Assembly: GCF_003018255.1 (NCBI RefSeq)
Contig: NZ_CP027440.1
Direction: 5' to 3' (one strand)
DNA length: 64,000 nt
Source of the DNA: Escherichia coli
GTDB lineage: Bacteria > Pseudomonadota > Gammaproteobacteria > Enterobacterales > Enterobacteriaceae
Shown: positions 23,607 to 26,027 of the stretch, one piece after another
Position numbering within the stretch: the first letter of the stretch is position 1
How the letters are laid out: each line of letters begins with the position of its first letter
Translations under genes and position numbers: made by a program
Notes under the pieces: generated by a model
Seen by the model: only the letters and a program-made list of their open reading frames with translations
Database searches by the model: none
What the model was told of the DNA's origin: nothing

Positions 23607-24645
23607 ACGCAAGGCACAAAGTCGCGCGATGTTTGGCGGATTCGATGCCCAGCTCAATCAACTCCATTACCTGGATTGCCTGACTTGCCGGAACCGGATT
23701 TTCACCATCGCCATTTAACGCATCACGAATAGCCGCATAGTAAGCCGGATAATTCCCTGGTACTGTCAACAGCGTTTCTTCGACACGTTCCTCACCTTCC
23801 ACGCGGGTAAGTACGCCATCACGCATATCGTAGCCCCAGTCTTCCTGCGGCAGACGCTCGCCATTTTTCAGACGTTCTTCCTGTGGATCGAGGCCATATT
23901 TCACATAACTGCCTCGGGATCCATGCACGATATAACGTGCTGAATCAGCGGCTGCCAGCATGGTGCCGTGTAAAATGACTCGCCGCTGCGGATAGGACAA
24001 GATGGCGTGGAAATAATCAGTCGACTGCGCTCCGGGCCGTAACTGTGCCAAATCTACCGTCATGCTAACCGGTAAACCAAATAGCGTAATGGCCTGATCA
24101 AGAAGATGCGGTGCTAAATCGTACCAGATACCGCTGCCAGGGCCGCCCTGTTCACGCCAACGATCGCGCACCTGCGGACGGAAGCGGTCAAAATGAGACT
24201 CAAAGTAAGCAACTTCCCCCAGCACGCCTTCCGTGAGCAAACCTTTTAGCGTCAGGAAATCGCTATCCCAGCGACGGTTATGGAATACAGACAGCACACG
24301 CCCCAGGCTTTTTGCCAGCGCTTCCAGCTCTCGCGCTTGTGACAGTGTCACGGTAAAGGGTTTATCAACGACCACATGTTTACCCGCCTCAAGCGCCGCT
24401 TTGGCTAACGGGAAATGGGTATCGTTGGGTGTAGGGATGACAATCAGGTCTATGTTGGGATCGTTAAACAGATGCTTCGGCTCAGAGACAACCGTAACCG
24501 TTGGCCAGTCGGCTTTTACTTTTGTTTCATCGCTGCTGGATATTACCGCCAGTTCCAGCCCGGGCGTGCCCGCAATCAGGGGCGCATGGAAGGTTTTGCT
24601 CGCATAACCATACCCAATCAACCCAACACGGATGTTGTCGCTCAT
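23605..24645 (-). CDS. ydgJ: Gfo/Idh/MocA-family oxidoreductase, 346 aa from ATG at 24645
   Basis: ORF 23605..24684; N-terminal Rossmann fold GLIGYGYASKTFH. Confidence 0.85.
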   Translation of the reverse strand: MSDNIRVGLIGYGYASKTFHAPLIAGTPGLELAVISSSDETKVKADWPTVTVVSEPKHLFNDPNIDLIVIPTPNDTHFPLAKAALEAGKHVVVDKPFTVTLSQARELEALAKSLGRVLSVFHNRRWDSDFLTLKGLLTEGVLGEVAYFESHFDRFRPQVRDRWREQGGPGSGIWYDLAPHLLDQAITLFGLPVSMTVDLAQLRPGAQSTDYFHAILSYPQRRVILHGTMLAAADSARYIVHGSRGSYVKYGLDPQEERLKNGERLPQEDWGYDMRDGVLTRVEGEERVEETLLTVPGNYPAYYAAIRDALNGDGENPVPASQAIQVMELIELGIESAKHRATLCLA

Positions 24646-24887
24646 GTCATTGCCTCTCATTGAAGTATGATGGCTATTTGACACTATCCTTTACCCTCGC
24701 TCAACAGTTTAATAACCTGCCAGCAATAAGGGATGTTGTTTAACTTAAGTCAAAAAAATAGCGAATTTTCCAACGACAAAAGCTAAATATCGCAAAAACC
24801 TCAGTAAAAATCTTGCTGGAGCTATTATTGCTAAGTAACATTTACCCCCTGAAGTTAATGGATCAATCAACAGAGATGTGGGCTGTA

Positions 24888-25013
24888 ATGAATCGTCTTA
24901 TTGAATTAACAGGTTGGATCGTTCTTGTCGTTTCAGTCATTCTTCTTGGCGTGGCGAGTCACATTGACAACTATCAGCCACCTGAACAGAGTACTACGGT
25001 ACAACACAAGTAA
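24888..25013 (+). CDS. blr: small membrane protein Blr (41 aa)
   Basis: MNRLIELTGWIVLVVSVILLGVASHIDNYQPPEQS... single TM; lies inside the 66-aa ORF 24813..25013. Confidence 0.8.
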   Translation: MNRLIELTGWIVLVVSVILLGVASHIDNYQPPEQSTTVQHK

Positions 25014-25285
25014 GCTCTGCGCTTGTAGAGCGACATGCTGGCCGACCGGGTGCATGTTTTAACTTGTCGGATATTAAACCAGGAATTTATTATCTTGTTC
25101 GATGTTGTTGGTGATTGTCAGAGATAGTAAAGCGCGTTACTCTTTTCAGAGCAGTTTTTCATCCCTGAATATTTGCCATCAGCGCATTCTTATTATTGTA
25201 ATAACACAAGCGTTCACTTTTGGTGAAATTTTATCATCACTAATAATACCTACCCCTTTGGTATTAATTATTTTATGGACCTTTT

Positions 25286-25501
25286 ATGACTGTTCAGGAC
25301 TACTTATTAAAATTTCGCAAAATCAGTTCACTCGAAAGTTTGGAAAAACTCTACGACCATCTTAATTACACCCTGACGGACGATCAGGAACTGATCAATA
25401 TGTATCGTGCTGCCGATCACCGTCGCGCAGAGCTGGTTTCTGGCGGGCGTTTGTTTGACCTCGGCCAGGTACCGAAGTCCGTCTGGCACTATGTCCAATA
25501 A
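25286..25501 (+). CDS. cnu: Hha-family H-NS-binding modulator Cnu (YdgT)
   Basis: 71 aa; recognised Cnu sequence. Confidence 0.92.
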
Positions 25502-25586
25502 AGAAAGTAGCGATCGGTTATAAAAGCCTTATAATAACGCCCCTAAAATTAGATTTGCCTGTTTGCGTCGCTATTCTGGAGAACCT

Positions 25587-26027
25587 ATGACCACCACAAC
25601 GCCACAACGTATTGGAGGCTGGTTGCTTGGCCCATTGGCCTGGCTTTTAGTCGCTCTGTTAAGTACGACGCTGGCGTTGTTGCTGTATACCGCTGCGTTA
25701 TCTTCTCCGCAAACATTTCAAACGCTCGGCGAACAAGCACTGACGACACAAATCTTATGGGGCGTTTCTTTTATTACCGCTATCGCCATGTGGTATTACA
25801 CACTGTGGTTGACCATCGCTTTCTTTAAACGTCGGCGTTGTGTTCCTAAACACTATATTATCTGGCTGCTTATTTCCGTATTGCTGGCAGTAAAAGCGTT
25901 CGCTTTTTCACCCGTGGAAGATGGCATAGCCGTTCGCCAGTTACTGTTTACTTTGTTGGCAACCGCATTGATCGTCCCCTATTTTAAACGCTCGTCGCGG
26001 GTGAAAGCGACGTTTGTGAATCCGTAA
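25587..26027 (+). CDS. ydgK: inner membrane protein YdgK, 146 aa from ATG at 25587
   Basis: ORF 25563..26027; four predicted TM segments; upstream of rsxA. Confidence 0.8.
   Translation: MTTTTPQRIGGWLLGPLAWLLVALLSTTLALLLYTAALSSPQTFQTLGEQALTTQILWGVSFITAIAMWYYTLWLTIAFFKRRRCVPKHYIIWLLISVLLAVKAFAFSPVEDGIAVRQLLFTLLATALIVPYFKRSSRVKATFVNP

Follow-up and report, generated by a model that had tools for sequence, protein, structure and literature searches.

A stretch of 64,000 nucleotides of Escherichia coli DNA (contig NZ_CP027440.1 of assembly GCF_003018255.1), in the following called the window, contains at positions 24888-25013 a very short reading frame, and the questions that this locus raises are which protein is encoded there, at which of several in-frame start codons this protein begins, and what the two residues mean in which its tail differs from that of K-12. 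The first question has a plain answer: 24888-25013 on the plus strand, to which all coordinates below refer unless stated otherwise, is blr (b4409), a known E. coli gene of a small membrane protein, and the translation is MNRLIELTGWIVLVVSVILLGVASHIDNYQPPEQSTTVQHK (41 aa, followed by the stop). A 41-aa blr at this place had been proposed in the preliminary description, and both family models as well as the gene order of K-12 bear this out. The NCBIfam equivalog model small_Blr (NF033231) covers residues 2-41 with its profile positions 1-40 of 40 and scores 91.3 bits at a cut-off of 40, the Pfam model Blr_divisome (PF24673) covers residues 1-41 with positions 1-41 of 41 and scores 87.9 bits at a cut-off of 27, and this family match of the window protein to Blr is far beyond chance.

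The gene order in the list of open reading frames, malY-add-ydgJ-blr-cnu/ydgT-ydgK-rsxABC with ydgJ on the minus strand, agrees in order and spacing with that of MG1655 and DETEC-S792, in both of which the blr coding sequence is annotated at the same relative position, and blr has its orthologous place between the divergent ydgJ and cnu/ydgT, upstream of ydgK-rsxABC. A 651-nt query around blr matches 5,424 of 5,426 complete E. coli genomes, and what is annotated under the match is 'blr: division septum protein Blr' and ydgT. Also the exact protein is present in RefSeq as WP_001296096.1 ('division septum protein Blr'), which bears a 'MULTISPECIES' name for the Enterobacteriaceae and is found on at least 1,000 contigs of a large protein collection; gene, protein and allele are thus all already catalogued, and the allele is common. 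The AT-rich intergenic setting that had been described is real as well, with a GC content of 0.372 upstream (24646-24887), 0.421 in the coding sequence and 0.379 downstream (25014-25285), as compared to 0.509 in the whole window. Antisense reading frames of 20-40 aa that run across blr were considered and found to be without support. Two database records deserve a remark: one plasmid-labelled record carries the blr region with the window-type allele, which is probably due to a mis-assigned replicon or to a chromosomal segment on a plasmid, and a 542-aa GroEL that is listed in the 90%-identity cluster of Blr is a clustering artefact of the protein collection.

What Blr does has been studied with the K-12 allele; cells that lose it are reported to become more susceptible to some inhibitors of peptidoglycan synthesis. 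Wong et al. 2000 speak in their title of an 'intergenic' 41-residue membrane protein that affects the intrinsic susceptibility to inhibitors of this type, and Karimova et al. [quoted passage not shown] In the literature, Blr is described as joining the division machinery at the septum, where it would help to stabilise the divisome when the envelope is under stress.

The window protein has the architecture of the family, a single helix, the motif HIDNYQPP and a short polar tail. Its one apolar stretch, the 18 residues LTGWIVLVVSVILLGVAS (residues 7-24, 24906-24959), is the longest apolar run and fits a single transmembrane helix, with a maximum Kyte-Doolittle hydropathy of 2.71 over 15 residues, and HIDNYQPP (24960-24983) adjoins this predicted membrane segment on the C-terminal side. 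The motif occurs in 32 of 32 homologues from an independent protein search; its invariance in 81 further loci has no independent weight, as these were retrieved by a DNA pattern made from the motif and the invariance therefore holds by construction. In the same 81 loci, which represent about 15 enterobacterial genera, R3, E6, G9, W10, L20 and A23 are invariant, and substitutions in the transmembrane stretch are conservative. As for topology, the likeliest arrangement has the short N-terminus in the cytoplasm and the 17-residue tail in the periplasm. Blr behaves as a class I substrate of RseP, whose usual targets are single-pass proteins of N-in/C-out orientation, and it is also cut in the periplasm by proteases that are not named; these findings, made with tagged constructs in which the tags can alter the orientation, place the tail there (PMC10470546). 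A search for solved structures that contain Blr returned none.

The second question, that of the start, arises from three in-frame ATGs in the window, at 24858 (51 aa), 24876 (45 aa) and 24888 (41 aa), and the mechanical list of reading frames contains in addition a 66-aa frame with a TTG start (24813-25013). The longer forms, the 51-aa protein from ATG 24858 and the 66-aa protein from TTG 24813, are very improbable as the true product. Both frames are open in the window, Salmonella, Citrobacter and Enterobacter have annotated proteins of 51-53 aa (51 aa in many Salmonella and Citrobacter genomes), and a few E. coli records have 66-68 aa, but the relatives do not keep these frames: the upstream part of the 66-aa frame is disrupted there by in-frame stops and frameshifting indels, codons -10 to -5 have a flat entropy by codon position (0.50/0.47/0.46) and contain 1-nt indels as well as stops in frame, only 40 of 80 loci have an in-frame ATG anywhere upstream of codon -4, and E. 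albertii, E. whittamii and two further Escherichia species have a TAG directly before the ATG that corresponds to 24876, and thus between 24858 and the coding sequence.

The upstream part of the 66-aa frame has a more likely role as a promoter. A CTTGC block and a (G)TAACAT block are conserved 17 nt apart across about 25 genera and species, and on this basis a blr promoter is inferred at 24813-24841, with TTGCTG (24813-24818) as the -35 element, a spacer of 17 nt and TAACAT (24836-24841) as the -10 element. The sigma-70 consensus scan did not report this promoter, because only 7 of the 12 consensus positions match. As the 66-aa frame runs through the conserved -35 and -10 blocks, it is an over-extension, just as the preliminary description had said, and with the promoter at this position, a leader of only about 9 nt would precede 24858. 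The 51-aa start was likewise rejected. It is interrupted in other Escherichia, lies in a stretch without codon periodicity and aligns with a Shine-Dalgarno element: the sequence ATGGAT (24858-24863) that opens the 51-aa frame shares its alignment column with AGGGAG in Kosakonia, Phytobacter and Pseudescherichia, with AAGGAG in Enterobacter sp. ENT03 and with AAGGAT in C. amalonaticus and C. sedlakii, and would thus be a degenerate form of that element and not a start. The comparison of the sequences already refutes the longer forms as a conserved feature. Just upstream of the -35 element, Enterobacter, Lelliottia, Salmonella and Citrobacter have a conserved near-palindromic motif (GGGAACCGTTCCC / TGAAATCGTTCCC), which in Escherichia is replaced by an unrelated sequence (CGCAAAAACCTCAGT) with no counterpart at about 24790-24805 of the window; it may be the binding site of a putative regulator that Escherichia has lost.

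The two remaining starts are four codons apart, and here a further reading has to be considered, namely that this strain, like the 92% of E. coli with TGG GCT after the upstream ATG, mainly makes the 45-aa protein from 24876, so that annotation and family models are too short. The preliminary description had named 24888, which stands as the reference and RefSeq start and as a start that is usable in E. coli; it may not be the sole start, and the in-frame ATG 24876 had been overlooked. The upstream ATG is followed here by three open codons, ATG TGG GCT GTA (MWAV, 24876-24887; these residues add about 0.49 kDa), the two ATGs correspond to MG1655 coordinates 1,704,539 and 1,704,551, and homologues from the protein search are annotated at 41, 45, 51 and 53 aa. 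For a survey of the start, 80 species-level enterobacterial loci were retrieved with a degenerate DNA pattern and their codons tabulated. At the position of 24876, ATG is found in 79 of the 80 loci, at the position of the annotated Met1 in only 29, and otherwise the latter position is occupied by ATT/ATC/ATA (34), TTC/TTT (14) or TTG (3). The residues at position 1, counted across 81 loci, are accordingly I in 34, M in 29, F in 14, L in three and V in one, and with Ile, Phe or Leu in 51 of the 80 surveyed species they resemble what is found at an internal hydrophobic position. In these 51 species the protein must start four codons upstream, as the codon equivalent to Met1 is not ATG. The only locus without the upstream ATG is that of C. 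amalonaticus S646, which has AAG there and ATG at position 1, and because this sole exception retains the position-1 ATG, there is not one locus among the 80 that lacks both.

Also the codons between the two ATGs point in this direction. In the Citrobacter/Salmonella/Escherichia clade, Ser-Ser-Val is kept at codons -3 to -1 by way of TCG/TCA/TCT and GTA/GTG/GTC/GTT, and the entropy by codon position is 0.34/0.13/0.82 bits, as compared to 0.21/0.07/0.90 bits in the core coding sequence of the same clade, which means that a periodicity of the coding type is seen even in a clade that has both ATGs. In most genera, the predicted Shine-Dalgarno pairing is placed for the upstream ATG, with a mean of -4.2 kcal/mol vs -0.8 kcal/mol for the annotated position, and some E. 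coli records, for example that of strain 042, already annotate 45 aa. In Enterobacter, RefSeq begins its 'MULTISPECIES' 41-aa Blr (MNRIIELAGW...) with an ATT codon, although the conserved ATG stands 12 nt before it (att ATG acg tca att ATT aat cga in GCA_037199315.1), and such calls appear to be forced by the 40- and 41-position family models that were built on the E. coli annotation. Since the Met1 ATG is present in only 29 of 80 species, the 41-position profiles reflect this annotation and not the whole family. Judged from these comparisons, it is the counterpart of ATG 24876 of the window that serves the family as its conserved and ancestral start, which would give a 45-aa protein. One assembly titled Chryseobacterium sp. 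18061 has a blr locus with an enterobacterial-type leader as well, and its Blr and start region are the same as those of Citrobacter sp. 18056 from the same project; mislabelling or contamination of the assembly is the most likely explanation.

What holds for the family does not decide the matter for E. coli, where the downstream ATG is sufficient. With allele-specific probes, the window-type start region ATG TGG GCT GTA ATG was found in 4,980 of 5,426 E. coli genomes (91.8%) and the haplotype ATG TGA GTT GTA ATG in 400 (7.4%), among them O157:H7, O55:H7 and O145:H28. Alignment of two divergent start regions, those of O157:H7 Z1835 and F2_81, places the stop of this haplotype at codon -3, and blr is annotated and intact in each of the 400 genomes. 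ATG 24888 must therefore work in E. coli, and on this account the simple idea of a mis-annotated E. coli start and a real protein of 45 aa was dropped as a lead. The ATG-TGA itself is a minimal start-stop reading frame 6 nt upstream of the annotated start. Strains of this type can make Blr only from the annotated ATG, possibly, if one may speculate, by re-initiation after a start-stop event. The leader speaks for the downstream ATG also in other ways: 5 nt upstream of it lies TGGGC, a weak Shine-Dalgarno-like motif that is common and unique to the Escherichia species, and in K-12 the predicted pairing favours the annotated ATG (-4.6 vs -3.1 kcal/mol for the upstream one). The window gives nearly the same value for both (-2.9 kcal/mol for the annotated vs -3.1 kcal/mol for the upstream ATG), and its leader differs from that of K-12 by a C at 24871 (K-12 has G), which weakens the AGAGAG purine run before the annotated start. 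Folding gives neither start an advantage, as the leader (24848-24925) is predicted to be slightly less structured than shuffled sequences (z = +1.31) and neither AUG is strongly sequestered.

Two further points count against a 45-aa main product: in C. amalonaticus S646 the upstream ATG is gone and the downstream one has to serve, so that the four extra residues are dispensable, and the original characterisation gave 41 residues, as stated in its title. That the 45-aa protein is the main product here and in most E. coli can thus be held only tentatively. The wider proposal, that the ancestral Blr had 45 aa and that most E. coli, this strain included, make the 45-aa form either alone or together with the 41-aa form, is somewhat more probable, though it still falls a little short of an even chance. 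If it is true, four residues are missing from the reference annotation, from the UniProt entry, from both family profiles (Pfam and NCBIfam) and from the ATT calls in Enterobacter, and the ATG-TGA of the O157:H7 type would be a natural variant that forces the use of the downstream start, possibly by re-initiation. No mapping of the blr start site was found in the searchable literature, including papers on retapamulin, Onc112 and N-terminal proteoforms and their supplements. The preferred reading is that ATG 24888 works as a start in E. coli and that this strain may make the 45-aa form besides the 41-aa form; translation can thus begin at ATG 24888 (41 aa, the reference form) and in this strain probably at ATG 24876 too (45 aa).

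The third question concerns the tail. It had been noticed that the tail appears to differ from the K-12 sequence, and alignment with the reference blr confirms this: MG1655 has ...EQSASVQHK where the window has ...EQSTTVQHK. The DNA alignment has exactly two differences inside the coding sequence, G to A at 24993 and T to A at 24996, which turn GCT TCG of K-12 into ACT ACG (codons 36-37, 24993-24998) and thereby cause A36T and S37T, both changes being non-synonymous, with no synonymous change beside them. The frequency of the two alleles was determined with 50-nt probes centred on codons 36-37 and a megablast search with an exact word of 28 nt, and since any 28-nt word must span both variable bases, a probe can detect only the matching allele. 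Among the 5,426 complete E. coli genomes, 2,234 (41%) have the window allele and 3,135 (58%) that of K-12; 753 of the window-type matches carry one mismatch, which is explained at least in part by a T-to-C exchange at 25016 after the stop, as it occurs in O157:H7. The suggestion of a possible strain polymorphism was thus right as to the polymorphism, and the variant is no peculiarity of the strain, as 41% of the complete genomes carry this one of the two major alleles of E. coli.

Does the difference matter? One could think that the Thr-Thr allele is functionally distinct from the Ala-Ser allele of K-12, in partner binding, in proteolysis or in an envelope-stress or beta-lactam phenotype, and that it is kept by selection. 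Two adjacent non-synonymous changes without a synonymous one in a coding sequence of 126 nt would fit this, as would the intermediate frequency of both alleles, the occurrence of still other alleles at the same two codons in Escherichia (SAT, STQ, STP and SAP) and the reported cleavage of the Blr tail by periplasmic proteases. However, residues 33-41 are hypervariable, with 51 distinct tails in the 81 loci from about 15 genera, and within each genus, too, the protein varies most in its tail, just as weak constraint predicts. In addition, exchanges between Ala, Ser and Thr are conservative and the sites are far too few for a test of selection, and a selected functional difference is therefore unlikely. 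As residues 36 and 37 are situated in the least constrained part of Blr, A36T and S37T are most likely neutral or nearly so. Both tails occur with the ATG TGA GTT leader, Thr-Thr in O157:H7 and Ala-Ser in F2_81, and that both are found on one leader haplotype suggests either recombination within about 120 bp or recurrent mutation.

Downstream of the stop, folding predicts two hairpins (25014-25031 and 25032-25058), the second followed by UUUU, which together reach a minimum free energy of -25.8 kcal/mol (z = -2.66 against shuffles) and form a probable intrinsic terminator of blr (25014-25062); the first hairpin is palindromic and was reported by the element scan on the minus strand. Five of the 11 differences from K-12 in the 651-nt alignment fall into these hairpins (25021, 25027, 25041, 25045 and 25061), and they do not look compensatory. 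A known RNA element is absent from 24400-25600, as the Rfam scan of this region at E <= 1 gave only a chance-level match to a nematode snoRNA (19.6 bits vs a gathering score of 45).

Taken together, blr would stand by itself, with a promoter and a terminator of its own, and encode a very small one-helix inner-membrane protein, and it is very likely that the joint picture is right, namely that the gene has these two signals of its own, that the Thr-Thr allele is more or less neutral, and that the start at 24888 works and the one at 24876 probably works too. The significance for biology at large is little, and the allele is that of two fifths of the sequenced E. coli, including O157:H7. Comparisons of Blr phenotypes across strains have to allow for the two major tail alleles, of which K-12 carries just one. 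The sole point of modest interest is the upstream start of the family, with a frame that is open or closed depending on the strain and with model-driven ATT calls in Enterobacter: the start of a textbook small protein is not settled by the comparative data, E. coli strains differ in the openness of the 45-aa frame, and as the family start is four codons upstream, constructs for tagging, antibodies or complementation that are based on 41 aa could omit native residues in many species.

The closest known relative that has been characterised is Blr of MG1655 (b4409, UniProt P56976), which is encoded at the same locus and has 39 of 41 residues identical to the window protein. Promoter region, start region and terminator architecture match and the 651-nt alignment has 99% identity, with the differences at A36T and S37T, at leader position 24871 and at several positions of the terminator hairpins. 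The 41-aa protein WP_001296096.1 of DETEC-S792 and of O157:H7 (Z1835) is identical to that of the window, and DETEC-S792 is 100% identical also over the 651-nt region, whereas O157:H7 has the leader ATG TGA GTT instead of ATG TGG GCT, which closes the 45-aa frame. The PF24673 homologues of Salmonella, Citrobacter, Enterobacter, Kosakonia and other Enterobacteriaceae share the N-terminus with R3 and E6, the one helix and HIDNYQPP; their tails have the same length of 9 residues in 68 of 81 loci and differ almost completely in sequence, and the flanks, as seen in Enterobacter loci, are those of E. coli, with a GFO/IDH/MocA oxidoreductase gene upstream and an Hha-family gene downstream. In a wider sense, Blr resembles YmgF, MgrB and AcrZ, which are of the same size class and, like Blr, bind larger membrane complexes with a single helix, but family profile searches found no sequence relationship to Blr, and the partner complexes differ. 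Blr and MgrB have a further trait in common, as both were found to be RseP substrates in one screen (PMC10470546).
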